From a virus, in IMG/VR virus record IMGVR_UViG_3300044974_000806: a DNA stretch of 64,000 nucleotides; one strand, written 5' to 3'. Numbering within the stretch: position 1 is the stretch's first letter; every line of letters starts with the position of its first letter. Positions 35,154 to 56,752 of this stretch are shown piece by piece. The notes below the pieces were generated by a model. The model was not told the DNA's origin. It made no database searches and worked only from the letters and a program-made list of their open reading frames with translations. Both the position numbers and the translations under genes were made by a program.

Positions 35154-35714
35154 TTGTGTATGGCAAAGAAAATATACACAAAAACAGGAGACCAAGGTCT
35201 AACTTCATTATTGGGGGGTACTAAAGTACCAAAGAACGATTGGAGAATTGAGGCATATGGTACGGTAGATGAATTGAATTCATTTATTGGTCTTTTAGGG
35301 GACAAATTACAAAGTAACAACTCTTCATTTTCATTCAGTTTTTTAGAGTTAGAAAAAATTCAAAACAATTTATTCAAAATTGGTTCTGTTTTGTCTTATG
35401 ACATGACCGCTGATTTAAAAATTGAACTACCAAATGTAACCGAAGCGGACGTTAAGAATTTGGAAGACTGGATGGATACAATGGAGTTAACATTACAGCC
35501 TTTGAAAAACTTTATCATACCAGGTGGACACGAGGCGGTTTCATTGGCTCATGTGTGTAGAACAGTATCAAGAAGAGCGGAAAGAAATACCGTACAAGCA
35601 ATTCAATATCCAATCATTATGAAATACATCAACAGATTGAGTGATTACTTCTTCATGTTGAGTAGATATATTGCTTCAGAGGTTGGAGTAGAGGAAAAAA
35701 TTTGGAAAGGTTAA
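35154..35714 (+). CDS. ATP:cob(I)alamin adenosyltransferase, PduO-type (Cob_adeno_trans family).
   Basis: The N-terminus KIYTKTGDQGLTSLLGGTKVPKNDWRIEAYGTVDELNSFIGLL closely follows the PduO/MMAB consensus IYT+TGD.G.TSL..G.RV.K...R.EAYG.VDELNS.IG. Confidence 0.7.
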   Translation: MCMAKKIYTKTGDQGLTSLLGGTKVPKNDWRIEAYGTVDELNSFIGLLGDKLQSNNSSFSFSFLELEKIQNNLFKIGSVLSYDMTADLKIELPNVTEADVKNLEDWMDTMELTLQPLKNFIIPGGHEAVSLAHVCRTVSRRAERNTVQAIQYPIIMKYINRLSDYFFMLSRYIASEVGVEEKIWKG

Positions 35715-36079
35715 TCCAAGATATATTCAACTGAATCACCAGCCTGAATGTTTTTGATTTCACAGGTACCACCTTCGACTTCTAATACTATATTACCATT
35801 ACCACAATAAGAAGGACAGTCAAACTCGTCATCACAAGGAGGGCAACTATGATGAATATTCACAATCACGTTATTTTTAATAACAATGATGTCTAATGGT
35901 ATTAAACAATTTTTCATCCAAAAACATTGTTTCTTACCTCCCATCAAAAACAATAAACCATTAAAGGTTTCATCGAAAGTTTTCCCCATCATTCCAATTG
36001 ATTGGGATTTTTCATCGATAAGTGTTTTGACTTTAAATATATTTTTATTAATTTTGACTTTCATACTAAATAAATACAA
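35711..36079 (-). CDS. DUF192 (COG1430) family protein.
   Basis: GMMGKT...GLLFL...CFWMKNCLIPLDIIVIKNN resembles the DUF192 core GLM.R...GMLF.F....FWMKNT.IPLD. Confidence 0.45.
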   Translation of the reverse strand: MYLFSMKVKINKNIFKVKTLIDEKSQSIGMMGKTFDETFNGLLFLMGGKKQCFWMKNCLIPLDIIVIKNNVIVNIHHSCPPCDDEFDCPSYCGNGNIVLEVEGGTCEIKNIQAGDSVEYILD

Positions 36080-36498
36080 TGGAAAAGAAAAGGTACGTAG
36101 GTGTTATGGTTAAATGTAAAGATAAGATACTTCTTTGCAAAAGAAATAACCAAGGTTCATTCCCAGGTATGTGGTCCATCCCTGGCGGAAAGTTGGAAGA
36201 TAATGAAACCACACAAGAGGGGGCAAAAAGAGAATTCTTAGAGGAAACCGCTGTAGACATTTCTGATATGGACTTACAATTCATTGGTTTAATACCAAGA
36301 CATACTCGTGACGGTAAGAAGGTTAAAGGTCTTATGTATGTGTATCTTTTGACTGTTGAAAATGAAATCGAACCTGATTTGGAAAAAGCGATTGACGGTA
36401 ATGAACATACTGAATGGGATTATTTTCCATTAAGTGGAATCAAACCTGAAAATAGCGGTGAATATATGTATAAACTTGCAGAAATTATATTAAAATGA
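36079..36498 (+). CDS. NUDIX hydrolase.
   Basis: NUDIX box GGKLEDNETTQEGAKREFLEETAV (Gx5Ex7REUxEExGU). Confidence 0.8.
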   Translation: MEKKRYVGVMVKCKDKILLCKRNNQGSFPGMWSIPGGKLEDNETTQEGAKREFLEETAVDISDMDLQFIGLIPRHTRDGKKVKGLMYVYLLTVENEIEPDLEKAIDGNEHTEWDYFPLSGIKPENSGEYMYKLAEIILK

Positions 36499-36616
36499 TT
36501 ACAGTAGTATTGTCATTAATTGGTGTTGTTATATTTGTTGGAGTATATGGATGGATTTCAATCAACAGACAAATAAAAAATATGATTGATGATATTGATT
36601 TTTAAAAAAAATGTTC

Positions 36617-36624
36617 TATCTTTG
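36617..36624 (+). promoter_or_regulatory. Bacteroidetes-type -7 promoter element TATCTTTG.
   Basis: Matches the TAnnTTTG consensus of Bacteroidota sigma-A promoters. An upstream TTTG lies at the expected spacing. Confidence 0.45.
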
Positions 36625-36625
36625 T

Positions 36626-36700
36626 AGAACTTTTGGGGGAAATGGAGATATTTATATGTTCATGTCCGAAAGGACGAACACCCCAAAATAAGTTTCATAA
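36626..36700 (+). ncRNA. Candidate small structured RNA (promoter-proximal hairpin transcript).
   Basis: TTTTGGGGG ... CCCCAAAA long-range stem enclosing a GTCC-gaaa-GGAC hairpin. It lies directly downstream of a promoter motif and has no ORF. Confidence 0.25.
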
Positions 36701-36723
36701 AAAAAAGATTTGATTGTTTGAAA

Positions 36724-36731
36724 AAACATTC
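36724..36731 (+). promoter_or_regulatory. Bacteroidetes-type -7 promoter element TACCTTTG.
   Basis: It is part of a roughly 40 nt element TTTGATTGTTT...AAAACATTCTTACCTTTGTGAAAC that is duplicated at 37150-37195. Confidence 0.45.
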
Positions 36732-36738
36732 TTACCTT

Positions 36739-36795
36739 TGTGAAACGAAAATCCCATAAGAAAGTTTTCGAGAGAATTCAAACCTTGTGGGATTT
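36739..36795 (+). ncRNA. Candidate small RNA or terminator hairpin.
   Basis: AAATCCCA ... TGGGATTTTTT stem followed by a U-run, about 10 nt downstream of a promoter motif. Confidence 0.25.
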
Positions 36796-36828
36796 TTTAT
36801 CTGAAGTTCTTTAATATAAAAATATATC

Positions 36829-36899
36829 GCGAGATAGTAGCAGCGGTAGCTCGCAAGGCTCATAACCTTGAGGTCGGGGGTTCGATTCCCTCTCTCGCA
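36829..36899 (+). tRNA. tRNA with anticodon CAT (Met, or Ile if lysidinylated).
   Basis: Acceptor stem GCGAGA/TCTCGC, anticodon stem-loop CAAGG-CTCATAA-CCTTG and T-arm GGGGGTTCGATTCCCTC. No 3-prime CCA is encoded. Confidence 0.75.
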
Positions 36900-36986
36900 A
36901 CTAAGAATAGGTTGACTACGTTAGTCGTAAAATTACGGTTCCCTATTTTTTTTTACAAAGAGTTTGACAAACTGAAAATGTTTTTC

Positions 36987-36994
36987 TATCTTTG
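36987..36994 (+). promoter_or_regulatory. Bacteroidetes-type -7 promoter element TATCTTTG.
   Basis: TAnnTTTG match with an upstream TTTGACAAACTG. Confidence 0.4.
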
Positions 36995-37172
36995 TAGTCC
37001 AATCGGGTAAAACTGATTGGTGTCTTTGACAAACAGACGAATTAGCCTGTCCTATAAAGTGTAGGAGGTCAACAAGATAGTTGGATGATACTATCAAGGA
37101 AGAATGAATTCGTTTAAATCATCAGTCAAAAAAAAAGTTTCTAAAAAGTTTGATTGTTTCCCAAAACATTCT

Positions 37173-37180
37173 TACCTTTG
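37173..37180 (+). promoter_or_regulatory. Bacteroidetes-type -7 promoter element TACCTTTG (duplicate of the 36724 element).
   Basis: Same roughly 40 nt promoter element as at 36706-36745. Confidence 0.45.
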
Positions 37181-37186
37181 TGAAAC

Positions 37187-37292
37187 AAATGAAGGAGACA
37201 GGTTGTAAAGATTCCTGTTGTTGATTATGAGACCTTTGGTTGATTATGAGACTTACTCAGGTTGTAAAGATTCCTTTCTCCTTCATTTTTAA
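37187..37292 (+). ncRNA. Candidate small RNA forming a long imperfect hairpin with internal direct repeats and a U-run.
   Basis: Outer inverted repeat AAATGAAGGAGA / TCTCCTTCATTT encloses two copies each of CAGGTTGTAAAGATTCCT and TTGATTATGAGAC, followed by TTTTT. It starts about 7 nt after a promoter motif. Confidence 0.3.
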
Positions 37293-37319
37293 AAGTACGT
37301 TCTTTGAATTAAAATATTG

Positions 37320-38165
37320 GCGGTCTATAGTCGTTAAATAAACCATGAAAGTGGTATAAAGTGACTTAGTTTGGTTGAACTAAGTTGCGGCTTCCGAAAG
37401 GGAGCTCGAGTAGACAAGCGAGATATCGTTAGACCTTTAGTACCGAGGGTGACACTGTAGGGAAAATGGTTTGACGACCAAGCGATGTGGGTCGTTTGGT
37501 TGAGGTGGGAACACCAATAAGAATAACTCGTAGAACTGTTGCAAGACATATGGTCATCCAACCATACGATTGCGGAGTTCAATATCAGGGTGGTCTTAAA
37601 ATCGAAAGATAAGACCTCGTACAGGTGGTGCTGTTGTAGTCCTTAACTTGACTCTACCAAGAGTTCTGTTATGAAGATGACCCAAAATATCGAGGCAGGG
37701 ATGTCTCAGAGAGTAGTTTAGTATTCTGTTGTTCAAAAGACGACGGAGCTGGCGACGGGCCACTACTTTCTTAATCCACAAACCACTTACTTTGTTAATT
37801 TTGGTTTAACAAAACTATAAATCAGATAAAGGAAAAGTGCTCGTCAGTTCTGGATGACAGGTCACTACATAGTCGTGAGATGTTCACGGCCATGAAGGGT
37901 CCCAAGCCCGACATGATTTTCACCAAAGTTCTCTAATCTCGCAAGGATTAATTGGGGTGGCAACCTCGAAGAGTGATGAGTAATGAGAGAGTGATTCAGA
38001 ACTTAAGGATTGGTTAATCTAATTGACCGTGACTGAGAGTTACTACTCAAAAGGTAGTGGAAATCGGAGGAAATAATAATCTCCCGTAAAGATTCTCAAA
38101 TTAAGGTGTATTCTCAGCCTGAATGCCAAATTGACCCTGACTATTTCCATAGTTGGGGTTTTTTG
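37320..38165 (+). ncRNA. Large GC-rich structured non-coding RNA candidate of about 850 nt. Possibly a GOLLD- or ROOL-like phage ncRNA.
   Basis: About 50% GC against about 33% in the surrounding DNA. No ORF exceeds 82 aa on either strand. There are many local stems (for example GACGACC...GGTCGTT and CTTCC-gaaa-GGGAG). It ends in GGGGTTTTTT and is adjacent to a tRNA in a phage, which is the typical context of GOLLD and ROOL RNAs. Confidence 0.4.
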
Positions 38166-38178
38166 TTATTATTAATTT

Positions 38179-39096
38179 ATGAATGTAATTATGGTAGCTG
38201 AGGACATCAATAAAGATGGCTCATTCAAACAGACAAAGGGGGAAATCATGTGTACGGTTTCCAATCTTGCATTCATAAAACATTATTATCCTGACTTTCA
38301 CACAATACTTTTTGTAGATAAATTTACCAGACCATATTATGAATCGTTCGGTATTACCGAACTGTTCGATGAGGTTAATGATATCATGCTGAACGAACAT
38401 GTTGATATCGATAAAAATGTGTTTTGGGCGGCGGGTAAACTAATGGCTCAAAGAATAACACCAGGACCAACATTAACTATGGATTTGGATTTTTGGGTTC
38501 GAGCTGACATATCAATGTTTGGAATTTTTGATTCAGATATTTCTTGTCTTTGGGTTGAAGAAATAAATGAAAAGTATTACCATAGACATGAGGATGCATT
38601 AAAAAACTCAAACTTAAAAATTGAATGTGATTGGGACCAATATGGAATAAATGTTTCGTTTCTTTATTTAAAAGATGAAGAATTTAAAAATACATATTGT
38701 GATTTATCAATAGAATACATGAAATCAATGTACGGTAAAATACCAAACAATCTTTCATTTGAAGATAAAACAAAATACATTTTATTTGCGGAACAATATC
38801 TTTTGAATCAAATTGCCAAAAAATATGATAAAAAAGTTAAAGTTCTTGTTGATGATTTTTATGACATTACCAATTTGAAACATGTTGAATCCATTGGTGT
38901 TCATATGAAAACTTGTCCAAAATACATTTATCATATGGGTAACCACAAACACGATTACAGAGCAAAGAATAGTTTTGCCCTTGAAGGAATAGAGATATTT
39001 TATAAAACAACCACATCGGTAATAACCGATGATAGGTTTATTAGAGTAATAAATAACATTTATAACAAATCAGAATATGAAGGGTGTTTTTGTTAA
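38179..39096 (+). CDS. Hypothetical protein, paralog A. Possible GT-A-like glycosyltransferase with a DxD motif.
   Basis: A hydrophobic strand followed by DLD (LTMDLDFWV). It shares FWAAGK and MDLDF blocks with the next gene. Confidence 0.45.
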   Translation: MNVIMVAEDINKDGSFKQTKGEIMCTVSNLAFIKHYYPDFHTILFVDKFTRPYYESFGITELFDEVNDIMLNEHVDIDKNVFWAAGKLMAQRITPGPTLTMDLDFWVRADISMFGIFDSDISCLWVEEINEKYYHRHEDALKNSNLKIECDWDQYGINVSFLYLKDEEFKNTYCDLSIEYMKSMYGKIPNNLSFEDKTKYILFAEQYLLNQIAKKYDKKVKVLVDDFYDITNLKHVESIGVHMKTCPKYIYHMGNHKHDYRAKNSFALEGIEIFYKTTTSVITDDRFIRVINNIYNKSEYEGCFC

Positions 39097-40027
39097 TTGG
39101 ACAAAACCATACGAAGAAAGAAAACGTTTGAGGGGGCACGCCTTCAAAATACACAGAGAACAGTTATCTGAGGAATATACAACAACAGATGAAGAGTTGT
39201 TATTCACAATATTATCTGTTGGATACTGGAAAAAATTTAACGGTCCTACCAAACTTTATACGGATAAAAAAGGTTTGGCTTACTACGCCAAGAATAACAT
39301 GTTGGACTTATGGGATGAAATTGATACTCATACCCTGGAGAACTATAAAGACATTGACCCAGCTCAGTTTTGGACATCAGGTAAATCGTATTGTATAGGA
39401 AAAGAACAAGTGCCATTTTGTTTTATGGATTTAGATTTTATGGTTATGGAGAAATTACCTCAATGGGTTTTTGAGTCTGAAGTAACCATACCATACTGGG
39501 AAATACCAAGAGGATATTATTACCCTAATGAGGACCAATACAAAGAAATAAAACATTGGCAACCCCCATCTGACTATTCATATAAGATGATGATTCCAAA
39601 CACATCTTTTTTATACATTGGGAGTGACAAAGTCCAATCCGAATACCTCAAAGACCATCTCGAGGCGGTTGACACCAAAAATGAAATACCTGAATGGTTT
39701 TGGTTAGTTACTGACCAAGGTTTATTTGGACAAGTTCTTAGGAGGTTCAATGTCAAAACTAATACTCTTACCGATAAAGTATTTTTGTCTGACCACGAAG
39801 GTTATGAAGGTAAAGTCGGTGAAGCAACTGGATTTTACTATTTGACCAACGCGGATTATTCCAAAGACAACCTTAAATGGTGGCACGTATGGACAAGGAA
39901 AGTTTTATACAATCAAGACGAAAATGTTAGAGTTTCTGACTGCAAAGAGTTCTACCAACGAATTATGGATGAACTACCTAAGTACAAACACATACTAAAT
40001 AACCCTCGTTTGGTGAGGTATAGATAA
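39077..40027 (+). CDS. Hypothetical protein, paralog B of 38179..39096.
   Basis: FWTSGK and FMDLDFMV align with FWAAGK and TMDLDFWV of the upstream gene. This looks like a tandem duplication. Confidence 0.45.
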   Translation: MKGVFVNWTKPYEERKRLRGHAFKIHREQLSEEYTTTDEELLFTILSVGYWKKFNGPTKLYTDKKGLAYYAKNNMLDLWDEIDTHTLENYKDIDPAQFWTSGKSYCIGKEQVPFCFMDLDFMVMEKLPQWVFESEVTIPYWEIPRGYYYPNEDQYKEIKHWQPPSDYSYKMMIPNTSFLYIGSDKVQSEYLKDHLEAVDTKNEIPEWFWLVTDQGLFGQVLRRFNVKTNTLTDKVFLSDHEGYEGKVGEATGFYYLTNADYSKDNLKWWHVWTRKVLYNQDENVRVSDCKEFYQRIMDELPKYKHILNNPRLVRYR

Positions 40028-40052
40028 ATTTGGTCAGGTCAAAAAAAGGGCG

Positions 40053-40060
40053 TATCTTTG
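40053..40060 (+). promoter_or_regulatory. Bacteroidetes-type -7 promoter element TATCTTTG.
   Basis: It lies 23 nt upstream of the SPFH gene start. Confidence 0.45.
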
Positions 40061-40082
40061 TGGTGTACCAAACCTAAAATAT

Positions 40083-40622
40083 ATGTTTGATAAGTTAATT
40101 GACCTTATTGTTACGTTCATTAATGACATCCTTCCGTGGAAAATTGTTGACCAATGGGAAGAAGGTGTTCACCTCAGTACAGGTAAATTCAAAAGGGTTG
40201 TAAAACCTGGATTGAATTTCAAAGTACCGTTTTTTGACCAAATTATTACTACACCTGTTATTACCCAAACGGTAAACTTGAAACCACAAACAGTTACATC
40301 TTTTGACGATAAATCAATTGTGTTAACCAGTATTGTTAGGTATCATATTCATGACGTTGAAAAGTTTTTGTTAGGTGTAATGCATGCGAATGACGCACTC
40401 GTTGACACAACTCAAGGAGTTATCCGAGACATAGTTGAAAACACTATGTGGGAAGAGTTGGCTGATTTAGGGTCGATAGTGAAACCTGAAGTTAATGAAC
40501 AAGTATCTAAGTGGGGAATTACTGTAGAACAGATTAGTTTTCCTGACCTTGGAGAAATAAAGACATATCGTATTATGTCTGATGGAGGTAAAGACAACGT
40601 ATTACCAATAAATGGGGACTAA
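40083..40622 (+). CDS. SPFH / Band-7 domain protein.
   Basis: VDQWEEGVHLSTGKFKRVVKPGLNFKVPFFDQIITTPVITQTVNL...VRYHIHDVEKF follows the SPFH pattern V.E.E.GV...GK....L.PGLHF.IPF.D.V. Confidence 0.6.
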   Translation: MFDKLIDLIVTFINDILPWKIVDQWEEGVHLSTGKFKRVVKPGLNFKVPFFDQIITTPVITQTVNLKPQTVTSFDDKSIVLTSIVRYHIHDVEKFLLGVMHANDALVDTTQGVIRDIVENTMWEELADLGSIVKPEVNEQVSKWGITVEQISFPDLGEIKTYRIMSDGGKDNVLPINGD

Positions 40623-40632
40623 TAGTCCTCAT

Positions 40633-41790
40633 TTATTTTTTCCAAGAGTTTCTATCATAATCCCCAAGTTCAAATACTTGGGCATAATTGTAATAAACCA
40701 TGTCTGCAATATTTTGATTATATAATGACCTCCAATCAAAATTTGTATAATCAGAAGAATTTTTTTTAATTAAACAATCTTTTTCCAATTCTCCAGACTT
40801 ATAATACTCTGTATGTCTAACATGAGGAATCTTTAAATAATCATCTAACATAGACTCAACCCTAATGATGTAATCTGGTTTTCTAATTGTGTGGTCATAA
40901 CATGGAAAACGTTGAACATCGTGAATTTCTTCATATAAATAAGAGTATAAAAATTGTTCAAATTGTTCAGATGTCCATTGTTCTTTATCTGTAGATGCCT
41001 TGAAATAAGACACTATCATGTTATATGGGTTCCTTAATGTTGTTATAAAAGATAATTTTTCGTGCCCATAACAGAAAATACAATGATGATGATTAGGGTT
41101 TTCCCTTTGATAAGGTTTCAAAAAACCTCCCTCTTGTTTGTAAAGTTCAAATCCCAATTTTGGTAGTATGAATGACGCTGAAGTTGAGGCGGTTTTTGGA
41201 GGTGTCCACGCGAATATTTTTTGAGTTAAATTCGCTAAAACTAAATTTTCTTTTGGGTATTGTATCTTTTCTAAAGACACCCAATTTACTAAAGAATGAC
41301 GAACCCCCTCTGTAATTGGGGTCACCCTATGTAGTATATCTGAAAAAAATATATGTAAATTACCAACTCCCCTTTCAAATTTAATTTCATTTCCGTTTAC
41401 ATCTTTAAATTCTAAATCACCACCTTCGTATTCATTGTTTAATTGTATAACAATTGAACAATACCTATTTTTATTTTTATTATTATCAGAATCAATATGC
41501 CAACCATAATATTCTCCGACGCCATATTGTGTAAGTTGATATCTACTTAATCCTGTTAACGTATTATCTTTTATTTTTATGTTTTGATTTAAAGTATTTT
41601 TTAATCTATTATCGATTGAATCAATAGTGTCTATAAATGCAACAGAAGATTTTCTCAAATTGTTATCTAATTTACCACCATCAATTAACGCTGGTTCCAA
41701 TTTTAACTTTGACAAGTATGTGTCCAATATTTTTTTACATTCATCTTCTGATAAGAAATTTTTTATTGTAATTGGTTTGCGGTCCTCCAT
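40633..41790 (-). CDS. Bifunctional-looking protein with an N-terminal P4H-like 2OG-Fe(II) oxygenase domain fused to a C-terminal sulfotransferase domain.
   Basis: N-terminal half: FLSEDECKKILDTY, HIDSD (HxD), RYCSIVIQLNNEYEGGDLEF and LHRVTPITEGVRHSLVNW (distal His and RxS). C-terminal half: PPKTASTSASF (5-prime PSB-like PKTGTTS motif) and LRNPYNMIVSYF (3-prime PB-like RNPxDRxxS motif). Confidence 0.6.
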   Translation of the reverse strand: MEDRKPITIKNFLSEDECKKILDTYLSKLKLEPALIDGGKLDNNLRKSSVAFIDTIDSIDNRLKNTLNQNIKIKDNTLTGLSRYQLTQYGVGEYYGWHIDSDNNKNKNRYCSIVIQLNNEYEGGDLEFKDVNGNEIKFERGVGNLHIFFSDILHRVTPITEGVRHSLVNWVSLEKIQYPKENLVLANLTQKIFAWTPPKTASTSASFILPKLGFELYKQEGGFLKPYQRENPNHHHCIFCYGHEKLSFITTLRNPYNMIVSYFKASTDKEQWTSEQFEQFLYSYLYEEIHDVQRFPCYDHTIRKPDYIIRVESMLDDYLKIPHVRHTEYYKSGELEKDCLIKKNSSDYTNFDWRSLYNQNIADMVYYNYAQVFELGDYDRNSWKK

Positions 41791-41836
41791 AATAAACTAT
41801 TTTTTAATTTTCCTTTGTGGTTTAAAATAAAAATAC

Positions 41837-41844
41837 TATCTTTG
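41837..41844 (+). promoter_or_regulatory. Bacteroidetes-type -7 promoter element TATCTTTG.
   Basis: It lies 20 nt upstream of the ORF starting at 41864. Confidence 0.45.
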
Positions 41845-41863
41845 TCAAACAAATCAAGAAATT

Positions 41864-42145
41864 ATGAACATGGCATCCCACAACATCAAGATTCAACACG
41901 AAAAATTCGGTGTCCTTTTGAACGAAACATTCGTAAATCCTATCCAATTCAAGCTTTTCTTGAAAATGGTTCAGGGATGTATTGAGTTAAAAAATGACCT
42001 TACATTCTTCAACGGTACTGATTTCTTTGTACACGTACCTTACAAGCATTTGGTTGAATCTATCATCACTACAGGTGTTGATAACTATACACTCGCAGAA
42101 CACTTGATTAACAAATCTAAAATGGAGGCTGAAGTAACAAAATGA
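41864..42145 (+). CDS. Hypothetical small protein.
   Basis: 93 aa protein preceded by a promoter motif. Confidence 0.35.
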   Translation: MNMASHNIKIQHEKFGVLLNETFVNPIQFKLFLKMVQGCIELKNDLTFFNGTDFFVHVPYKHLVESIITTGVDNYTLAEHLINKSKMEAEVTK

Positions 42146-42408
42146 GAAGACTATTAGACAACTTATTAAGAGCCGCTGGTGTGGGGGCAATTCTCTACGG
42201 AGTTTATAAACTTGGTGAGAAAAACGCTTTACGTTCTATGGAACAAGAACAACCACCACTAAAGATTGAGGAAAAACCAAAGACAGAGAGTGAGGTTATT
42301 TCTGATATGATTGAAGAACTTAAACAAAAACCCAACAAAACTCGAAAAGATAAAGACAATATTGAATTGTTGGAAATAAAACTCAAACAAGTAAAAAATC
42401 AAAAATGA
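42142..42408 (+). CDS. Hypothetical small membrane protein.
   Basis: N-terminal hydrophobic segment LLRAAGVGAILYGVY. Confidence 0.3.
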   Translation: MRRLLDNLLRAAGVGAILYGVYKLGEKNALRSMEQEQPPLKIEEKPKTESEVISDMIEELKQKPNKTRKDKDNIELLEIKLKQVKNQK

Positions 42409-42704
42409 TAACTATTGAGCAAATAATAGGATGGTCTAACCCACATCCAATAGGAAACGGAGCAAGAAGAACTCGTATTCTAAGCGACGCAATTGAGTTT
42501 TCAATTGTTGGTGGAGCAAATGGATTATACGGTAATTTTGACGATACTTTTGAAGTTGCAATCTTTGACAACCAAACAGGGGAGTTTATGACAAGATTTT
42601 TTTATCCTGAAGGTAATGATGATGTTATCCCTTACATGGGAGGCAAAGAGTTGGAAGAACTGGTAAACAAATTAATTAAAGATAAAGATTTCCAAGTTAG
42701 ATAA
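42405..42704 (+). CDS. Hypothetical protein.
   Basis: 99 aa. Confidence 0.35.
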   Translation: MITIEQIIGWSNPHPIGNGARRTRILSDAIEFSIVGGANGLYGNFDDTFEVAIFDNQTGEFMTRFFYPEGNDDVIPYMGGKELEELVNKLIKDKDFQVR

Positions 42705-42747
42705 AACTTGGTGGTGGATGGCTTACAAACCAGTACGGCCCCAAATT

Positions 42748-42773
42748 AAGAGGACTTCGGTCCTCTTTTTTTA
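42748..42773. terminator. Bidirectional terminator between convergent genes.
   Basis: AAGAGGAC-ttcg-GTCCTCTT with a TTCG tetraloop, followed by TTTTT. Confidence 0.6.
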
Positions 42774-43286
42774 TACGTTATTTACAATGTCTTTTCGGTC
42801 GTCCCACCAAATACCGAAACCACAATTTTTATAGACTAATTTGTTACAGTCCTCTCTGATGTCGTCAACCATTTCATCGAAGTCTGCCCATTCACCCATA
42901 CCAATTTCGTCTCCTATTTCTTGAATTGTTTTGTAAGTTTCATTACCATCTTCATCTTGATGTAGAATTTGTGTTTCACCCCAACTCCAATCACATAGTA
43001 CTGTTGTTTCATCGTTTTCTAAATCAAGACGTGGGTTGAGTATATGGATATAGGCGTATTGATTTGAGTCATCATAAAGATTACTAATTCTTATACCATC
43101 TGAAGTTGACATTTTGTTGAGTGCTTTTTCTGTGAAGTCATCGGCTTTTTCTTCACCTATTTCGGCAACCATATCAGGAAGAAACTCTTCCAAATTATAA
43201 TCAACCATTTTGGCAATAGATTGTATGTCAGGATTTGGATATCCGACTTTTTGTAATACTTTTAAAAATCTGTTTAAATCGCTCAT
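42771..43286 (-). CDS. Hypothetical acidic protein.
   Basis: 171 aa. Confidence 0.4.
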   Translation of the reverse strand: MSDLNRFLKVLQKVGYPNPDIQSIAKMVDYNLEEFLPDMVAEIGEEKADDFTEKALNKMSTSDGIRISNLYDDSNQYAYIHILNPRLDLENDETTVLCDWSWGETQILHQDEDGNETYKTIQEIGDEIGMGEWADFDEMVDDIREDCNKLVYKNCGFGIWWDDRKDIVNNV

Positions 43287-43287
43287 A

Positions 43288-44139
43288 TTACGTTGTGTAG
43301 TAATCAGGTTCGTAGTTGTTATACCTATTATCTATTTTCATTTTTTCTGTGAAGTTTAACTTAGGCTCATCCGAATAAAACGTACAGTAAACCTCGTTAA
43401 TTTTAACCCAGTCTTGAAACTCGGCGTGACCATCGTCTTCATATGTTAATACTATATATTCGTCTCTTAATCTGTCAAAATCATATTCGGATAATGCGGG
43501 ATATTTGGTGTTTTCGTTTAATGAGAAATCACCATTAATTGCTCTATTCCATGTTACAACAAGATACGCATCATATTTAAGTTGAGTTGTTTCAACATCA
43601 CCATTACCATTACACTCCCAACATTCATTTTTTCCATTGTCACAATTATCACAACTTAAATAACCTTCTCCACCACAATCAGGACATTTATCGTTGCCAG
43701 TACCCTCACAAGCTTCACAATCTTCCCATTCTCCGTCACCCATTTCTCTACCATCTCCATCACATTCAGGACATGTGACCTCACCACTACCATCACACGT
43801 CTCGCATGTAATTTCACCTCTATCACAGTATTCACAATCAAGTTCACCCTCACCATCACATGAATCACATGTTTTTACGTATTCAGTACCTTCAGTTGTG
43901 AATACGTTGGCAAACCCTAATGATGAAATCATAGTGTCACCAACATTAAATTTACCTGTTGTTTTAAATGAATATATGTAAAAGGTTAACTTAACAATAT
44001 TATCAGGACCCAAATACTTGAAGTAATCGGATTGTTTTTGCATTACAGGGATTAATCCGTCATAGACCTCTTGAGGTGTTTCTGATTTAGGAATTAATTC
44101 CGATAATTTTACTGTTAATTTTTTTAATTTTTCGTCCAT
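43288..44139 (-). CDS. Hypothetical protein with eight or more CxxCxGxG zinc-finger repeats (DnaJ CR-domain-like).
   Basis: CDSCDGEGELDCEYCDRGEITCETCDGSGEVTCPECDGDG...CEACEGTGNDKCPDCGGEGYLSCDNCDNGKNECWECNGNG. Confidence 0.5.
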   Translation of the reverse strand: MDEKLKKLTVKLSELIPKSETPQEVYDGLIPVMQKQSDYFKYLGPDNIVKLTFYIYSFKTTGKFNVGDTMISSLGFANVFTTEGTEYVKTCDSCDGEGELDCEYCDRGEITCETCDGSGEVTCPECDGDGREMGDGEWEDCEACEGTGNDKCPDCGGEGYLSCDNCDNGKNECWECNGNGDVETTQLKYDAYLVVTWNRAINGDFSLNENTKYPALSEYDFDRLRDEYIVLTYEDDGHAEFQDWVKINEVYCTFYSDEPKLNFTEKMKIDNRYNNYEPDYYTT

Positions 44140-44142
44140 AAA

Positions 44143-44601
44143 CTAATTTTCTTCGTAAAGGAATTTGTAACCTAACACAAATTTATGTTTCTCGTCTACT
44201 CTATAATCGGCGCTGAATAGTAAAGGGTCTAAGGCGTAAACATTGCTATTATTGCCACTAACAATTTTTCCTTCCTGATTTACCACAAACTCCAATAGAT
44301 ATTTTTGAAGCTCATTTGACATTTTCACTACATCACGAACAAATTCTGATAATTCTAAATCTATTGCACCGTGATAATCTAATGTGATATCTAAGTCGTA
44401 CCTACTTAACTTCTCTCTTGACTCGTCTGTATATTCGAACTCCACGTAAATATCTTGAATGTCAAACCACTTGGCAGCATTCATCTTAATTAGATATTTC
44501 AACTTTTCTGTTAAAACTTGTTCGTTAATCATATCAATAAATACATTTATTTTTGTATTTAGGTTTATTATGTTTCTTGTATAAAAAAATTCATATGTCA
44601 A
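44143..44601 (-). CDS. Hypothetical protein.
   Basis: 152 aa. Confidence 0.4.
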   Translation of the reverse strand: MTYEFFYTRNIINLNTKINVFIDMINEQVLTEKLKYLIKMNAAKWFDIQDIYVEFEYTDESREKLSRYDLDITLDYHGAIDLELSEFVRDVVKMSNELQKYLLEFVVNQEGKIVSGNNSNVYALDPLLFSADYRVDEKHKFVLGYKFLYEEN

Positions 44602-45014
44602 TACAAATCACAGTAACCGAAGAAGAAATCCTATCAACGCCAAATTACTACGATATGGGTAAGAAAGTTCACGATAAATTCTGGCAAGCTAGAAGGGACC
44701 AAGAAGGACCTCAATTAGGAGATGAACACTTTCATATGTCCATTGATGAAAACGGTCTTGTAACGTCTATAAATCGTCCGTGGACCTGTTCTATCTGTGG
44801 TGAGTCTACCGAAGAAATAGAATATGACTACTTAGTTGGATATGACCATTTAGGTTGTGTTCTAAAAACTGAAGATTCAGGAGACCAATACGATAAATGT
44901 GTTATATGTGGTAAAGAAACTCCTTACCTAAAAAGTACTAACATAGACTACAGAATAGGATATGTTGAAGGTGGGGGACAAGGTTGTTATCAACCAAATA
45001 TTTGTAGTAAATAA
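44595..45014 (+). CDS. Hypothetical Cys-containing protein. The start has been trimmed to MSIQITV.
   Basis: Two CxxC pairs (CSICGES and CVICGKE) suggest zinc binding. Confidence 0.4.
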   Translation: MSIQITVTEEEILSTPNYYDMGKKVHDKFWQARRDQEGPQLGDEHFHMSIDENGLVTSINRPWTCSICGESTEEIEYDYLVGYDHLGCVLKTEDSGDQYDKCVICGKETPYLKSTNIDYRIGYVEGGGQGCYQPNICSK

Positions 45015-45586
45015 TGGGAGAATTATTAGGTTATAATATATCTGAAAAATATAAATGCGAGTGGGTTGCGCCTGAAAGAACTGGTAGTCGTAAAGTTGCT
45101 GAAATACTCACTTTTTTTGGATTCACAAATAATAACAAACCAGTTTATTATTACAATAATCATTTTCATTCACATTATGGTCCAAGCGAAAAATACAAGG
45201 ATTACACTTTGATTTGTAATGCTAGAAATCCATACGCTAGAACGTATTCAATTTTTAAAAATCTATATCCACAATCTCTTGATAAATCTAAAGAGGCTTT
45301 TAAACAATATTTGTTTGAATATATGAATAAGGACATTACTAAAGACATGATTATTAAACCAATATTTTCAAAAAAACCTGACCATATAATTAGGTTGGAA
45401 CATATAGATGAAGACCTTATGAAGTTACCGTTCATATTAGATGTTCTTACCGAACCTAAATTAAAAATGTTAACTCAACACGGTAAACCTTTGGAAAATT
45501 GGGAACAGTATTATGACCAAGAAATCAAAGAATTTGTATATAGTTTAACAAAACACCATTTTGATGAATGGGGATATGAAAAATAA
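45014..45586 (+). CDS. Sulfotransferase-family protein.
   Basis: WVAPERTGSRKVAEIL (5-prime PSB-like) and LICNARNPYARTYSIF (3-prime PB-like RNPxxRxxS). Confidence 0.55.
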   Translation: MGELLGYNISEKYKCEWVAPERTGSRKVAEILTFFGFTNNNKPVYYYNNHFHSHYGPSEKYKDYTLICNARNPYARTYSIFKNLYPQSLDKSKEAFKQYLFEYMNKDITKDMIIKPIFSKKPDHIIRLEHIDEDLMKLPFILDVLTEPKLKMLTQHGKPLENWEQYYDQEIKEFVYSLTKHHFDEWGYEK

Positions 45587-45608
45587 CTTATAAAATCTAT
45601 TTATTGGT

Positions 45609-46121
45609 ATGAAAACACCAGTTGGACAAACTTATTATCATAACGATTTTATAACAGAAGAAGAAAGAATAATAATTAAAGAATGGGCAATAAGGAATGA
45701 GAAATACCTTATTCCAAATCCAAGTGGACCTTTCAGGGCTAGAGAGTTATTTGAACTTATCCCTGAAAAACTTGACTTGCTTGACAAAATTAAAGAAAGA
45801 ATCATAGAAGTTGAAGGAATTGAGGAAGAAGTGTTTGAACCATTCAGAGGTGATTTTGTTAGTATACAAAGAAATGGTGCAAAAGTTCCAGAGCACATAG
45901 ACCACAATCCTGAAAATAAAACTTTATATTCAAGAAGATATAATGTTTTTATTTCCCTACCAGAAAAAGGAGGATTACCAATCTATGATGGTGAGGTATT
46001 ACATTTATCAGAAAAATGTCTTTTAAAGGTCGATTCAGGACTAATACCACATTCAACTACAATTATTGAAGGAAACACACCGAGAATTATTTTATCGTAT
46101 GGGTTTGCTTTTAAAAAATAA
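45609..46121 (+). CDS. P4H-like / 2OG-Fe(II) oxygenase-like protein.
   Basis: N-terminal FITEEERIIIKEW (compare FLSxEEC), EHIDHN (HxD), RYNVFISLPEKGGLPIY, distal IPHST and RIILSYGF (compare RxS). Confidence 0.5.
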   Translation: MKTPVGQTYYHNDFITEEERIIIKEWAIRNEKYLIPNPSGPFRARELFELIPEKLDLLDKIKERIIEVEGIEEEVFEPFRGDFVSIQRNGAKVPEHIDHNPENKTLYSRRYNVFISLPEKGGLPIYDGEVLHLSEKCLLKVDSGLIPHSTTIIEGNTPRIILSYGFAFKK

Positions 46122-46145
46122 TTTTGGCAGTTAAATTTAAATGTG

Positions 46146-46153
46146 TATCTTTG
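46146..46153 (+). promoter_or_regulatory. Bacteroidetes-type -7 promoter element TATCTTTG.
   Basis: It is part of TATCTTTGTATTCACAAAAACA, which is duplicated at 47142. Confidence 0.5.
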
Positions 46154-46176
46154 TATTCACAAAAACAAAGAAACAT

Positions 46177-46635
46177 ATGACAACTACCACCACCCCTTCA
46201 GTAATCAAAGTAACAACAGGTACATTAGCAGGAGACGTATTCTACGGTTCATTCGACACCACAGTAAAAAACAAGAGAGTCTCTGTAATGGTCTCAAACC
46301 ACATTAAATACGAGAATAAAGAGTACGAGTTCCGTATCGCAAACAAATGTCAAGCGGGATTCATCAACATCCACGACAGTAAAGGTACTGCATCTGAAAT
46401 CATCAGAGGATACTCAAAGAACTCCTTGGTTAACATCCAAATGAAAAACGAGTTTGGTCATTGGATGAACGTTTACACAACTAAGGGTGGTAAGTGGTAC
46501 TCAATCGACAAAGGTTTCTTGGATGTGATGACCGTAGGAACTATGAGACAATCATTCCCTGACATGTGTGACATGAGTATTTGGAATCAATTTGGGGCTA
46601 AAACTTGGGCGGATAAAGCCTTCACTCAGAACTAA
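46177..46635 (+). CDS. Hypothetical protein with an MTTTTTPS N-terminus. The start has been trimmed.
   Basis: The tracked ORF begins inside the promoter. The ATG at 46177 lies 24 nt downstream of the -7 element. Codon usage here is comparatively GC-richer, which suggests high expression. Confidence 0.5.
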   Translation: MTTTTTPSVIKVTTGTLAGDVFYGSFDTTVKNKRVSVMVSNHIKYENKEYEFRIANKCQAGFINIHDSKGTASEIIRGYSKNSLVNIQMKNEFGHWMNVYTTKGGKWYSIDKGFLDVMTVGTMRQSFPDMCDMSIWNQFGAKTWADKAFTQN

Positions 46636-46660
46636 AAAAAAAGTCAAAAAAAGTTTGAAA

Positions 46661-46684
46661 GATAGGGAGAAATCCCTATCTTTG
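46661..46684 (+). promoter_or_regulatory. Perfect 8 bp palindrome GATAGGGA-gaaa-TCCCTATC overlapping a -7 promoter element TATCTTTG.
   Basis: GATAGGGAGAAATCCCTATCTTTG. It could be an operator or terminator that overlaps the promoter of the 46702 gene. Confidence 0.4.
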
Positions 46685-46701
46685 TAAATTAAAACTAACA
46701 T

Positions 46702-47103
46702 ATGAACTGGCATGATGATTTTATTGATTTAGTATTGTTGGCACCTAAACAAAACCCTTTTTGGAATAATAAGATTGAGAAAGCTATCCGAGATATTCAC
46801 TCTCATGTAGAATTCCCTCTTACAGATAAACTGAAAGAACAAATACGTAACATAGGGGAACCTTCACCTGAAAAGATGTCCGTGAAATCCAAACAGTATT
46901 TAAATCGAAAATTGAAAGAGTTCGGGGTAAATGACCAAATACAGATTGAACACATGATTTCCGTTAAGACTATAATAAAAAAAATTTGGTTGTTAAAAAA
47001 GGAGAATACAAAGCCGACACCTGAAATGATTAGGACCCTTATGAATCAAAACACGAATTGTATCTACAAATTACGGAAAAAAGAAAAAGAGCTTCACGGA
47101 TAA
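46702..47103 (+). CDS. Hypothetical protein.
   Basis: 133 aa, basic. Confidence 0.4.
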   Translation: MNWHDDFIDLVLLAPKQNPFWNNKIEKAIRDIHSHVEFPLTDKLKEQIRNIGEPSPEKMSVKSKQYLNRKLKEFGVNDQIQIEHMISVKTIIKKIWLLKKENTKPTPEMIRTLMNQNTNCIYKLRKKEKELHG

Positions 47104-47990: not shown

Positions 47991-48383
47991 ATGGAAAAAT
48001 TCAATCCCCATCATCAACATTTGCTGGTTAAGTGTTGGGTAACAAACCCTCCAAAGAAAGAGGAACAATTGAACAAATGGTTTATAAATTTAGTTGAAAC
48101 GGTTGGGATGAAAGTGGTTGCTGGTCCTACAAGTGTTTATGTTTCAGACCCTGGCAATGAGGGGTTAACAGGTACAGTTACTTTGGCAACTTCACACGCA
48201 TCAATACACATTTGGGATGAAGAAAAACCTTCAATGGTACAGTTTGATATCTACAGTTGTAAATGTTTTGAATTGGAACAAGTAATGAAGTGTTTTGAAC
48301 CATTTGGATTAGTTAAGGCAGAATGGGTTATGATAGATAGAAATGATAAACCTACTATTGTGTCAGAAGGAATATGGGAATAA
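47991..48383 (+). CDS. S-adenosylmethionine decarboxylase-like proenzyme (AdoMet_dc family, pyruvoyl-dependent).
   Basis: GTVTLATSHASIHIWDEE matches the ESHxSIHTWPE self-cleavage and pyruvoyl motif. The size of about 130 aa is typical of the bacterial/archaeal small type. Confidence 0.55.
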   Translation: MEKFNPHHQHLLVKCWVTNPPKKEEQLNKWFINLVETVGMKVVAGPTSVYVSDPGNEGLTGTVTLATSHASIHIWDEEKPSMVQFDIYSCKCFELEQVMKCFEPFGLVKAEWVMIDRNDKPTIVSEGIWE

Positions 48384-48691
48384 GGAACCCATTTAAGACG
48401 TGGTCCAAACAAGAGGCTCATTTCACTTCGTGGTTACTTAAAGACGTATTTTGGTGTTTAAAACTACCCTTATTTGCAACTTTAATGGTTATACCAACAA
48501 CATTACTTACACTATACATTCTATTCAAAGAACAGGACAACAGAGATACAAATTTAATACTTTCAAGTTGGGTATTCATGAACATATTTTGGATGTTACA
48601 TGAACTACAGAATTTTCCTTATTGGCCTGTACAGGTATGTATGATTCTCGGAGGACTCGCAGTTATTAATTCTGTAACAAGAAACAAATAG
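48374..48691 (+). CDS. Small multi-pass membrane protein.
   Basis: Three hydrophobic segments. Confidence 0.35.
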   Translation: MGIRNPFKTWSKQEAHFTSWLLKDVFWCLKLPLFATLMVIPTTLLTLYILFKEQDNRDTNLILSSWVFMNIFWMLHELQNFPYWPVQVCMILGGLAVINSVTRNK

Positions 48692-49271
48692 ACCAATCTG
48701 TTATAGGTTTCTTATCAGAGGTATAACCCTGTGAACATATAAAATCGAATGTTGAGGTATCGATACCTTTTTCACTATTAATCTCAATTATTATTACTTT
48801 TGGTTTAACCAAATTAAAAGGAAACTGTCTTATTACTTTGCTATCCAATCCTTCCAAATCAATATTAACTACCTCTAAATCAAACAATTCTCTTTTGGTT
48901 ATAAAGTCAGTAATTGTTTCACAGTCCACCACTTTTTCAACATAAGAATCCAATGGTATTTTTAGTTTACCACAAATCTCTTTTACTTTTTCATAATTAA
49001 AAGTACCTGTTTGATAAAACCATTCAGGGACATTCTTGATTTTCTTTGGTTCATAAAATGTTTTTGAACCTGAAGATGTGTGTATTCCAAGACCAACGAA
49101 TGTATAATCAAAACCAATAAAGTTATCGCGACACTCTGAAAGAACTTCAAAATTTGCATCAACAAAATAACCTGTTAAATTATATTCTAAAATATAGTTT
49201 AGAATTGGGTCATTTGACACACAATCATAACATCCAAAATTAATAAACTTGCCACCTTTTTTAATTTCCAT
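48666..49271 (-). CDS. Hypothetical protein. Weak resemblance to FkbM-family methyltransferases.
   Basis: INFGCYDCVSN and FVDANFE loosely resemble the FkbM DxGANxG region. This is a low-confidence call. Confidence 0.3.
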   Translation of the reverse strand: MEIKKGGKFINFGCYDCVSNDPILNYILEYNLTGYFVDANFEVLSECRDNFIGFDYTFVGLGIHTSSGSKTFYEPKKIKNVPEWFYQTGTFNYEKVKEICGKLKIPLDSYVEKVVDCETITDFITKRELFDLEVVNIDLEGLDSKVIRQFPFNLVKPKVIIIEINSEKGIDTSTFDFICSQGYTSDKKPITDWSICFLLQN

Positions 49272-49497
49272 AATTTAATTATAAAAACATTTCCCTATTA
49301 AAAAAGATTTGTTTAATTTTATAAAAAACAAATATTATGGTAGTGCAACTTAAAGAAATGATTGAGAATAATGAAATTACCGAGATTGAATTGGTTGATT
49401 TTGTCAGAACACTAAAAAAACTCGGAAAGAATAATTTCATGGACAAAAGAAATGTCAAACTAGTAACCAAACACTTTGGTTTTAAAAAGAAAAAAGG

Positions 49498-49926
49498 ATG
49501 GTTAAAGATAGAGAAGGGAAACAAAGTACAACTGTAATAAGAAGAAGGTCTCCAGAATATATCAAGGAGAAAATGATTGAGGATGTGTTGGAACATTTTG
49601 ATTTTGATAAGTGCCAATACGTTATGAAACAATTGAATTGGCAATGGTATGGAAGAGGTATTCCAACCATTGACGAATTAAAATATTCTGCAAGACAAAG
49701 ATTGGAATCTGCAATTGCGGGTGCTTTGGATAGAAAAGATACACTTCCATTAAATTCTTATTATTTTTCTTCAAGCGGAGGATTAAAGGCCACCGCATGG
49801 AGAAACAGATACTGGCATTTAGAAGCCATTAACTTAGAATTCGTCTTGACCGAGTGGGATTCGGATGGAGATTATGTTATAGATAAGAAAAATGAAAACA
49901 AAACTACCGAGCGCAATAATTTATAA
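49498..49926 (+). CDS. Hypothetical protein.
   Basis: 142 aa. Confidence 0.35.
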   Translation: MVKDREGKQSTTVIRRRSPEYIKEKMIEDVLEHFDFDKCQYVMKQLNWQWYGRGIPTIDELKYSARQRLESAIAGALDRKDTLPLNSYYFSSSGGLKATAWRNRYWHLEAINLEFVLTEWDSDGDYVIDKKNENKTTERNNL

Positions 49927-53392: not shown

Positions 53393-53404
53393 TGATATTT
53401 ATAC

Positions 53405-54388: not shown

Positions 54389-54393
54389 TCTTT

Positions 54394-54591: not shown

Positions 54592-54648
54592 TTCCAATTC
54601 TTTTTTTATCGAAAAAAATAATTTATATTTGCGTAAAATTATGATACG

Positions 54649-56080: not shown

Positions 56081-56092
56081 ACCTATAAATAC

Positions 56093-56356: not shown

Positions 56357-56391
56357 AAGACAAATATAAGAAAAAATAAGGGTGGGGTAAA

Positions 56392-56712: not shown

Positions 56713-56752
56713 AATCTATAAATAGTTTAAGGTAAACATTATATTTATCAAT

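Follow-up and report, generated by a model that had tools for sequence, protein, structure and literature searches.

The nearest described counterparts of the system treated here are bacterial operons predicted computationally by Iyer, Abhiman, de Souza and Aravind (NAR 2010, PMC2938197), in which 2-oxoglutarate (2OG) dioxygenases occur together with sulfotransferases and synthetases of 3'-phosphoadenosine-5'-phosphosulfate (PAPS) and are proposed to act on collagen-like and tail-collar proteins. The logic proposed for them is to hydroxylate and then to sulfate, and that work also notes proteins in which a sulfotransferase domain is joined to a 2OG or JmjC dioxygenase. Here we describe a phage locus on a DNA stretch of 64,000 nucleotides from the IMG/VR virus record IMGVR_UViG_3300044974_000806, the whole of which we call the window. 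Its central gene, 40633..41790 on the minus strand, encodes a fusion of a 2OG/Fe(II) oxygenase resembling prolyl 4-hydroxylases (P4H) with a sulfotransferase-like domain, and the window also holds a second sulfotransferase-like gene, two more oxygenase genes, and a gene resembling kinases of adenosine-5'-phosphosulfate (APS) with a small nucleotidyltransferase as its partner. We read these genes as a PAPS-dependent phage sulfation kit, tied to P4H-like hydroxylases and most plausibly acting on collagen-like fibres, a reading that we believe and doubt in about equal measure; the sulfation module as such is supported.

Like the systems of Iyer et al. (PMC2938197), the window has the same list of parts and the logic of a dedicated PAPS supply, but the parts themselves differ. 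The earlier systems are bacterial (and from Monosiga) with oxygenases of beta-hydroxylase, phytanoyl-CoA-hydroxylase or FIH1 type, whereas those of the window belong to a huge phage and are P4H/PKHD-like; the window sulfotransferases come from a different, unannotated family resembling Sulfotransfer_2; and in place of a canonical PAPS synthetase there are an APS-kinase-like gene and a small nucleotidyltransferase gene, with the genes spread over ~30 kb. Fusion and adjacency of the two activities are both present in the window, the PAPS supply is represented only by the APS-kinase-like gene, and collagen-like fibre genes lie 7-18 kb away. An initial annotation of the window, made from its letters alone, knew of no such phage system, which was an overstatement, for the bacterial form had been predicted in 2010 (PMC2938197) and genes of cultured cyanophages are annotated as sulfotransferases; the concept of hydroxylation followed by sulfation is therefore not in itself new. 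Sulfotransferases also appear in literature lists of viral auxiliary genes, while a literature search by set phrases returned no paper describing a phage sulfotransferase, and no demonstrated sulfation of virion proteins or glycans was found for any phage in the literature searched. What is new is a phage-restricted sulfotransferase family, a P4H-sulfotransferase fusion in a phage, and a widespread triad of sulfotransferase, APS-kinase-like and nucleotidyltransferase genes. If our reading is right, the window would be a concrete case for the earlier prediction that hydroxylation plus sulfation of collagen-like proteins predates animals.

Regarding other systems, there are viruses which encode collagen-like proteins along with the hydroxylases that modify them: the prolyl 4-hydroxylase of PBCV-1 (5c5t) and Mimivirus L230 (6ax6) are examples, the latter being a lysyl hydroxylase fused to the enzyme of the next step, a glycosyltransferase, much as the fusion described here would pair two steps. 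Those are viruses of eukaryotes, however, and their second step is glycosylation, not sulfation. In the rhizobial Nod factor, the glycan-directed sulfotransferase NodH is encoded with NodP and NodQ (ATP sulfurylase and APS kinase), independently of housekeeping PAPS. NodPQ are homologues of CysD/CysN-CysC, whereas the phage has a lid-less APS-kinase-like enzyme and a nucleotidyltransferase resembling nicotinamide mononucleotide (NMN) adenylyltransferases (NMNAT), and Nod-factor sulfation proceeds without an oxygenase. The cylindrospermopsin cluster brings the sulfotransferase CyrJ, the APS kinase CyrN and the proline-hydroxylase-like 2OG hydroxylase CyrI into one gene set, but it is cyanobacterial, contains no fusion and makes a small-molecule toxin, in which hydroxylation and sulfation fall on different carbons.

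Two more comparisons concern the donor and other phages. For the methyl phosphoramidate (MeOPN) modification of Campylobacter jejuni, four enzymes, Cj1415 to Cj1418, make CDP-phosphoramidate 3'-phosphate (PMC11800397). There an APS-kinase homologue, which as in the window has a nucleotidyltransferase as its neighbour, adds a 3'-phosphate to the nucleoside-diphospho donor made by that nucleotidyltransferase, and the resulting PAPS-like donor serves to decorate a capsule sugar; this donor, however, carries a phosphoramidate, its synthesis also takes a glutamine kinase and a hydrolase, and the transferases that use it are unrelated to sulfotransferases. The homology of Cj1415 to APS kinases and the fold of Cj1416 are assumed here. 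The large cyanophages S-SCSM1, S-SKS1 and S-SRM01 have annotated canonical sulfotransferases, ~29% identical to those that we found upstream of the kinase in relatives of the window, with 2OG genes within a few kb. Those proteins belong to Sulfotransfer_3/1, are uncharacterised and unfused, and have no APS kinase annotated next to them, although a 'nucleotide kinase' gene lies ~4.5 kb away in S-SCSM1.

The fusion gene and its sulfotransferase family

The five open reading frames (ORFs) on which the initial annotation was based, namely the fusion, a sulfotransferase-like gene followed by an oxygenase gene, and a kinase gene followed by another oxygenase gene, lie at the coordinates and on the strands given there, and the motifs PPKTASTS, LRNPYNMIVSY, PERTGSR, RNPYARTYS, IWFTGQPGSGKTTI, HIDGDDLRDLF and SPYKDQRD are all found in the translations. 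The fusion ORF encodes 385 aa and ends with the stop codon at 40633..40635. Its N-terminal part, residues 1-175 (41266..41790, minus strand), was rightly called a P4H-like oxygenase: residues 85-171 match Pfam 2OG-FeII_Oxy_3 (PF13640; 2.3e-14, 54.6 bits, cutoff 27), and phrog_61, '2OG-Fe(II) oxygenase', is matched too (2.1e-34). The iron ligands H98, D100 and H154 and the 2OG-binding R164 and S166 are invariant in the alignment of homologues; they make up the HxD...H iron triad and the RxS motif on a double-stranded beta-helix of P4H fold, and the structures closest to it are those of prolyl hydroxylases acting on proteins, a viral collagen P4H among them. The remaining ~205 residues gave no meaningful match in Pfam, PHROGs or NCBIfam. 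The sulfotransferase domain there (residues 177-385; 40636..41262, minus strand) was assigned by motifs and family homology, with the predicted 5'-phosphosulfate loop PPKTAS (residues 197-202) at 41185..41202 and the predicted 3'-phosphate motif RNPY, followed by a Ser at R+8, at 41023..41034.

No plausible internal start codon is found at the domain junction, hence we treat the protein as a true fusion. A search for the fusion architecture, which the initial annotation had suggested, returned full-length 385-aa relatives at 97% identity (38 member sequences on 6 contigs) and at 83% identity, and this recurrence excludes an assembly artefact. The 83% variant (P0037) is a mosaic, ~98% identical in the oxygenase domain, far more divergent in the middle of the sulfotransferase domain and ~97% identical again at the C-terminus. 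It follows that recombination has reshuffled the gene with the in-frame fusion preserved, and the pattern indicates a stand-alone sulfotransferase gene of P0001 type as the partner.

In a large protein database the C-terminal domain of the fusion has 35 homologues, none of them annotated; 34 are stand-alone proteins of 194-233 aa and the other is a 128-aa fragment. A stand-alone member is also present in the window itself, at 45014..45586 on the plus strand (190 aa, with PERTGS and RNPY...S), and the kinship of the two, in line with the initial annotation, is confirmed by BLASTP (28% identity, E 5e-11) and by a hidden Markov model (HMM) of the family (7e-51); in the alignment the stand-alone protein is without the YKSGEL segment of the family. 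Motifs were counted over 69 distinct members. The RNP of the 3'-phosphate motif is found in 69/69 and the Ser at R+8 in 60/69, while in the PKT[AG]S loop the lysine position is K in 53, R in 10 and H in 5, the next is T in 60 and the last is S or T in 68. A His 18 residues before RNP, a spacing that resembles cytosolic SULTs, is conserved in 64/69, and the Glu of an RVE motif is invariant (69/69); these two are candidates for the catalytic base at the acceptor hydroxyl. In an AlphaFold2 model the 5'-phosphosulfate loop runs between strand 16-19 and helix 26-35, and the region of the 3'-phosphate motif consists of strand 71-76 and then helix 79-90, so that each motif has the strand-loop-helix setting that it has in known sulfotransferases. 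The overall fold is closer to solved sulfotransferases than to generic P-loop kinases, with Foldseek E-values all >0.001.

Direct profile matches are weak. The family profile against the PDB has a marginal best match in SULT7A1 (E 0.068), with RNP aligned to RNP, and phmmer of the fusion domain against PDB sequences gave noise only; Sulfotransfer_1 is matched weakly by 5/30 members (best 1.1e-3), and neither sulfotransferase sequence of the window reaches the gathering threshold of a curated model in Pfam, PHROG or NCBIfam. Only two cellular relatives emerged from a scan of one genome per prokaryotic species, and both pass the threshold of Pfam Sulfotransfer_2. The relative in Vibrio hannami (Sulfotransfer_2 1.3e-15; family HMM 45.4 bits) lies inside a Wzx/Wzy polysaccharide cluster, together with one GT2 and three GT4-type glycosyltransferases, a pyruvyl transferase and two further sulfotransferases, and that of a Chloroflexota member (family HMM 62.3 bits) has its Sulfotransfer_2 domain fused to a glycosyltransferase-like domain. 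A tblastn search with either window sequence found no homologue in 50,697 phage records. The family does occur in IMG/VR contigs of 317-321 kb, with at least four paralogues per contig, where the mixed neighbours (Y-family polymerase, flavodoxin-like, thioesterase, cyclophilin) offer no functional clue. Because of the motifs, the weak direct matches and the transitive homology to Sulfotransfer_2 members, we take these proteins to be sulfotransferases, and we conclude from the comparison of sequences that the family is a divergent, so far unannotated branch of carbohydrate-type Sulfotransfer_2, found almost only in phage-like contigs. A previously nameless protein family would thereby gain a name, with at least 69 distinct members in huge-phage contigs and as many as four or more paralogues per ~320-kb genome.

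Oxygenase pairings and the kinase-nucleotidyltransferase pair

The stand-alone sulfotransferase gene is followed, after 22 nt, by the gene of a second oxygenase (45609..46121, plus strand; 170 aa; H96, D98, H148, R159, S163). It has no Pfam match, 8/50 of its relatives match weakly and hhalign gives a probability of 3%, and its P4H-like assignment comes from the fold search; the multidomain relatives of this protein contain no sulfotransferase-like domain. We annotated related viral contigs and loci (labelled L001 and so on) with custom HMMs. An oxygenase of the 45609 type directly follows a sulfotransferase-like gene in the window and L004, and does so again in L001 and L002, where the sulfotransferase is a different paralogue and the surroundings are glycosyltransferase, HAD-like, cupin, cytidylyltransferase and PfkB kinase genes. 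Together with the fusion, oxygenase and sulfotransferase are thus juxtaposed in at least three arrangements.

At 29403..29837 (plus strand) lies the P-loop kinase of 144 aa, for which the APS-kinase-like call of the initial annotation holds: Pfam APS_kinase (PF01583) is matched at 1e-16 (61.7 bits, cutoff 21.1), the match stopping at profile position 110/152, and the best PDB matches are exclusively APS kinases (3e-11). Its GQPGSGKTT, DGDDLR, Y45, R50, N53 and VSPY align to the APS kinases 8a8h and 2yvu, and its orthologues conserve them; DGDxxR and the positions Y/F, R and N presumably line the APS site in canonical APS kinases. The stand-alone APS kinases among the PDB matches have 173-211 aa, and in the phage protein the lid segment is shortened against 2yvu, a complete lid being the KGLYKKAR...FTG region that closes over ATP and APS. 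By sequence comparison, 'APS-kinase-like' is the accurate name. The identity of a NadR-type ribosylnicotinamide kinase was rejected, there being no match to such models and clear APS-kinase motifs instead.

Downstream of the kinase are the third oxygenase (29841..30596, plus strand; 251 aa), also correctly called in the initial annotation (PF13640 6.7e-17, 62.7 bits, cutoff 27), and then a small nucleotidyltransferase with the HIGH motif (30599..30997, plus strand; 132 aa), which carries GRWQPWHNGH and ISATKIR and matches CTP_transf_like at 3e-6. The best PDB match of the latter is a NadM-type NMNAT (1.2e-5), and NCBIfam NMNAT is matched at 1.5e-10, below its cutoff. Among 415 viral kinase loci found, 80 were annotated, and the nucleotidyltransferase accompanies the kinase in 79/80, with the two genes abutting or overlapping in 72. 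The sole locus lacking it is L078 (5178..7326; a 322-kb IMG/VR contig), where a canonical sulfotransferase overlaps the kinase start and a glycosyltransferase-9-like gene comes after the kinase. In Xylella phage Salvo gp32 (L031, 5578..6324) and Stenotrophomonas phage DLP_6 (L032, 4590..5321) kinase and nucleotidyltransferase are a single fused protein, annotated 'kinase' in Salvo and 'Adenylylsulfate kinase' in its version from phage Bacata, and phrog_10255 covers both halves. In DLP_6 the third gene upstream of the fused one encodes an Fe(II) oxygenase.

The association with sulfation comes from the genes upstream. Among the 59 kinase loci with at least 1.2 kb of upstream sequence, the only informative ones, a sulfotransferase gene lies within 1.5 kb upstream in 23 (39%, kinship among loci being ignored in this count); 11 of these sulfotransferases belong to the new family and 12 to canonical Sulfotransfer_3/1, the latter identified by Pfam for the four that were tested (1e-14 to 6e-25) and by an HMM built from these four for the other eight. 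Two unrelated sulfotransferase families at one position are strong guilt by association, which links the kinase with sulfation and, through the kinase, its partner as well, and the place that the initial annotation gave the kinase in a sulfation module is thereby borne out. The triad is also very abundant (415 viral kinase loci, thousands of nucleotidyltransferase homologues) and consists of three small soluble proteins.

The junction between kinase and nucleotidyltransferase has itself received oxygenase genes. A 2OG gene of the window type stands there in the window, L041 and L052, and in L108 (4080..7386), with different flanking genes, a 2OG gene of another subfamily occupies exactly this junction, with stop and start codons that overlap. 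As judged from these sequences, insertion has taken place at least twice, with two different subfamilies, and independently in L108. Oxygenases of the 45609 type come after the pair both in L070 and in L108, and the latter locus also has a carbamoyltransferase gene of NodU/CmcH type directly upstream of the kinase. We connect the oxygenases of the window with the module because of their positions: the first shares a polypeptide with a sulfotransferase, the second is encoded right beside the other sulfotransferase, and the third stands inside the kinase-nucleotidyltransferase pair.

As to the origin of APS, the initial annotation saw no ATP sulfurylase in the window. This stands for the canonical types (Sat PF01747, CysD/CysN), as their motifs QxRNPxHxxH, GRDHAG and SGGxDS are absent from window ORFs of at least 90 aa and no Pfam match to these enzymes was obtained among ~50 window ORFs scanned, but the nucleotidyltransferase, a near-obligate partner of the kinase, had been overlooked. 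It belongs to the same HIGH superfamily as ATP sulfurylase, but its sequence is NMNAT-like, and we regard it as a candidate enzyme of donor synthesis.

Candidate acceptors and alternative explanations

Three consecutive collagen-like genes (799, 730 and 694 aa) occupy 16103..22771 on the plus strand. By translation and triplet count, G-X-Y repeats, with GPT, GAQ and GPQ as the prevailing triplets, make up 444-510 residues of each product, and all three carry at the C-terminus the motif SDxRLKxNI, which we take to mark a self-cleaving chaperone domain such as phage fibres and tailspikes have at their C-terminus; the products are probably tail fibres. Their Pro-rich and Thr-rich triplets are possible sites for hydroxylation and O-glycosylation, and the proteins are candidate substrates of the module. 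No signal peptide was seen by eye in the module enzymes, which implies cytoplasmic chemistry and fits modification of virion proteins during assembly. The window also carries glycan-synthesis genes at 48666..55059 (mixed strands), for which Pfam gave an FkbM-type methyltransferase (minus strand), two GT2, UDP-galactopyranose mutase and a second small cytidylyltransferase-like protein (136 aa); the GT2-GT2-UDP-galactopyranose mutase cluster lies at 49892..53392. Orthologues of this cluster surround sulfotransferase-like genes in L001, L015 and L028.

On our reading, the two paralogous sulfotransferases of ~200 aa, that is the C-terminal half of the fusion and the product of 45014..45586, would move sulfate from PAPS to hydroxyls, while the lid-less APS-kinase-like enzyme and its 132-aa nucleotidyltransferase partner would top up PAPS. 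The three P4H-like oxygenases most likely share their target macromolecule with the sulfotransferases, and our best guess for it is the collagen-like tail fibres of the phage itself, for which the closeness of the P4H fold to prolyl hydroxylases, the three fibre genes in the window and the like prediction for bacterial operons (PMC2938197) speak. Hydroxylation of these fibres would come first and sulfation second, the latter either directly on hydroxy-amino acids or on O-linked sugars added by phage glycosyltransferases, and the fibres would end up polyanionic; that the sulfate goes onto the newly made hydroxyl is conjecture. Sulfated and possibly glycosylated fibres of this kind would be mucin- or glycosaminoglycan-like and could alter adsorption, host range, adherence to mucus or particles, and immune recognition. 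A bolder form, in which the nucleotidyltransferase is a minimal sulfate adenylyltransferase, makes with the kinase a PAPS synthase of ~280 aa, and the oxygenase inside this pair and the one fused to a sulfotransferase mark a hydroxylate-then-sulfate chemistry on the fibres, we consider rather unlikely. If it were true, huge phages could sulfate virion fibres or glycans whatever the state of sulfate assimilation in the host, and activation of sulfate by the nucleotidyltransferase would make it a third, minimal type of ATP sulfurylase.

Several observations weigh against the reading just described. The kinase has no C-terminal lid, and its NCBIfam apsK score of 67.2 bits is below the equivalog cutoff of 138.7, while its fusion with the nucleotidyltransferase occurs also in Casjensviridae phages, which gave no tblastn match to either sulfotransferase family. 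The recurrent pairing of oxygenase and sulfotransferase that the initial annotation put forward is real in its three or more arrangements, but it comes down to 4 adjacencies among 63 sulfotransferase-like ORFs, most of which have no 2OG neighbour, and the syntenic slot of the fusion holds two tandem sulfotransferases (L006/L007) or a lone one (L003) in relatives. Related loci share ancestry, so locus counts exceed the number of independent events. The collagen-like genes, at their distance of 7-18 kb, lie outside the module operons. What is more, the nearest cellular relatives and several of the phage contexts point to glycans rather than to hydroxy-amino acids, and with relatives of carbohydrate type a glycan, which as acceptor would not have to be hydroxylated first, is at least as likely.

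These points lead to a first alternative, in which a phage-made or host-surface polysaccharide or lipid-linked glycan is sulfated without any coupling to hydroxylation, the oxygenases are independent accessory genes that share variable slots, and the fusion is merely tolerated. The Wzx/Wzy cluster and the glycosyltransferase fusion of the Sulfotransfer_2 relatives agree with it, as do the sulfotransferase-like genes inside GT2-GT2-Glf clusters (L001, L015, L028), the glycan genes of the window itself, the scarcity of adjacencies, and the tandem or lone sulfotransferases in the fusion slot; in addition, the variable regions of cyanophages hold many 2OG genes, and such accessory genes are common in marine phages. 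It accounts less well for an in-frame fusion that survived recombination, for the same oxygenase family following a different sulfotransferase paralogue in a different context in L001, and for two 2OG subfamilies inserted at one kinase/nucleotidyltransferase junction, and chance alone hardly explains three independent juxtapositions; on balance we hold it to be possible but doubtful. The kinase and nucleotidyltransferase could instead be a pair for cofactor salvage (NadR-like, or like phosphopantetheine adenylyltransferase and dephospho-CoA kinase, serving NAD, CoA or a 3'-phospho analogue), with the sulfotransferases living on host PAPS. The resemblance of the nucleotidyltransferase to NMN adenylyltransferases, with which it shares GRxQPxHxGH and ISxTxIR, speaks for such a role, and so do a Nudix gene nearby, the fused pair of Casjensviridae phages and DLP_6 that comes without detectable sulfotransferases, and the fact that the pair is near-universal and highly conserved in the phage group while the sulfotransferases vary. 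Yet the kinase matches APS kinases at 1e-16 to 1e-18 and other kinase families at 5e-8 or worse, it retains the DGDxxR, Y/F, R and N positions (whose part in the APS site is assumed, as above), NadR-type kinase models give no match, and two unrelated sulfotransferase families stand just upstream in 39% of the informative loci, which makes salvage improbable in our view.

A role in nucleic-acid hypermodification was also considered, where the oxygenases would hydroxylate a (methylated) base and the kinase or the sulfotransferases would activate or decorate the hydroxyl, with sulfate as leaving group or final adduct, so as to evade restriction. The operon order of kinase, 2OG, nucleotidyltransferase and N6/N4 DNA methyltransferase with overlapping stop and start codons suits this, as does the carbamoyltransferase upstream of the kinase in L108, and according to a 2024 paper (PMC10829341) systems for nucleotide sulfation in phages were predicted by Iyer et al. 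2013. But the oxygenases have no Tet_JBP or AlkB match in Pfam and their nearest structures are protein prolyl hydroxylases, the adjacency of the methyltransferase is a lineage-specific synteny absent from loci with canonical sulfotransferases, and relatives of the sulfotransferase family lie in glycan contexts; we think it very unlikely. Hardly credible, finally, is a generic P-loop-like fold without sulfotransferase activity, for example a binding or structural module, as the identity of the C-terminal domain of the fusion. The missing Pfam, PHROG and NCBIfam matches of the window sequences and the high Foldseek E-values would allow it, whereas the domain has no Walker A motif, the sulfotransferase-specific 5'-phosphosulfate-binding and 3'-phosphate-binding motifs are near-invariant in 69 members, and transitive homology leads to Pfam Sulfotransfer_2. 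The initial annotation had itself named a generic P-loop NTPase as the finding that would overturn its sulfotransferase call, and on this evidence the call is upheld.

The window and its further genes

The window resembles huge phages, and its nearest matches in a phage collection are uncultured phage genomes of 634-642 kb; a megablast of 38000..47000 against the 50,697 phage records gave no match. The GC content is 46-49% in the block of the collagen-like genes and ~32% in the rest of the window. Around the module genes, a scan for promoters and terminators found no more than chance would give and was uninformative.

Next to the fusion gene are two overlapping DUF6734 genes (38179..40027, plus strand; 305 and 316 aa; Pfam DUF6734 9.5e-8 and 4.6e-6), which are given as context only, and a Band_7 gene (40083..40622); both are syntenic with the fusion gene, and L008 keeps the order of DUF6734 pair, Band_7 and fusion slot. 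The DUF6734 genes carry DLDF (DxD-like) motifs, and nothing on this domain was found in the PDB or the literature; that they are glycosyltransferase-like is only a guess. Over 48666..61165 the sugar-modification set also includes genes for a beta-keto acid cleavage enzyme (BKACE), for a hexapeptide acyltransferase and for a DegT/DnrJ aminotransferase that, at 198 aa, looks truncated.

Auxiliary metabolic genes at 35154..36498 and 47991..48383 encode a cobalamin adenosyltransferase (2.5e-55), a Nudix hydrolase and an S-adenosylmethionine decarboxylase-like protein, and the minus-strand gene 35711..36079 is the counterpart of a DUF192 protein in the relative L003. A single tRNA-Met (CAT) gene is at 36828..36901 (plus strand), within an ORF-poor stretch (36500..38180). 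The 131-aa ORF at 55037..55432 (plus strand) has a sub-threshold match to Cfr10I/Bse634I restriction endonucleases (1.4e-5, 25.1 bits, cutoff 27). A DnaJ homologue of full length, with J domain, zinc finger and C-terminal domain, and directly after it an N6-adenine DNA methyltransferase of Dam type are encoded at 7949..10064, and a Cys-rich protein with CxxCxGxG repeats, separate from the DnaJ homologue, is encoded at 43288..44139 on the minus strand.

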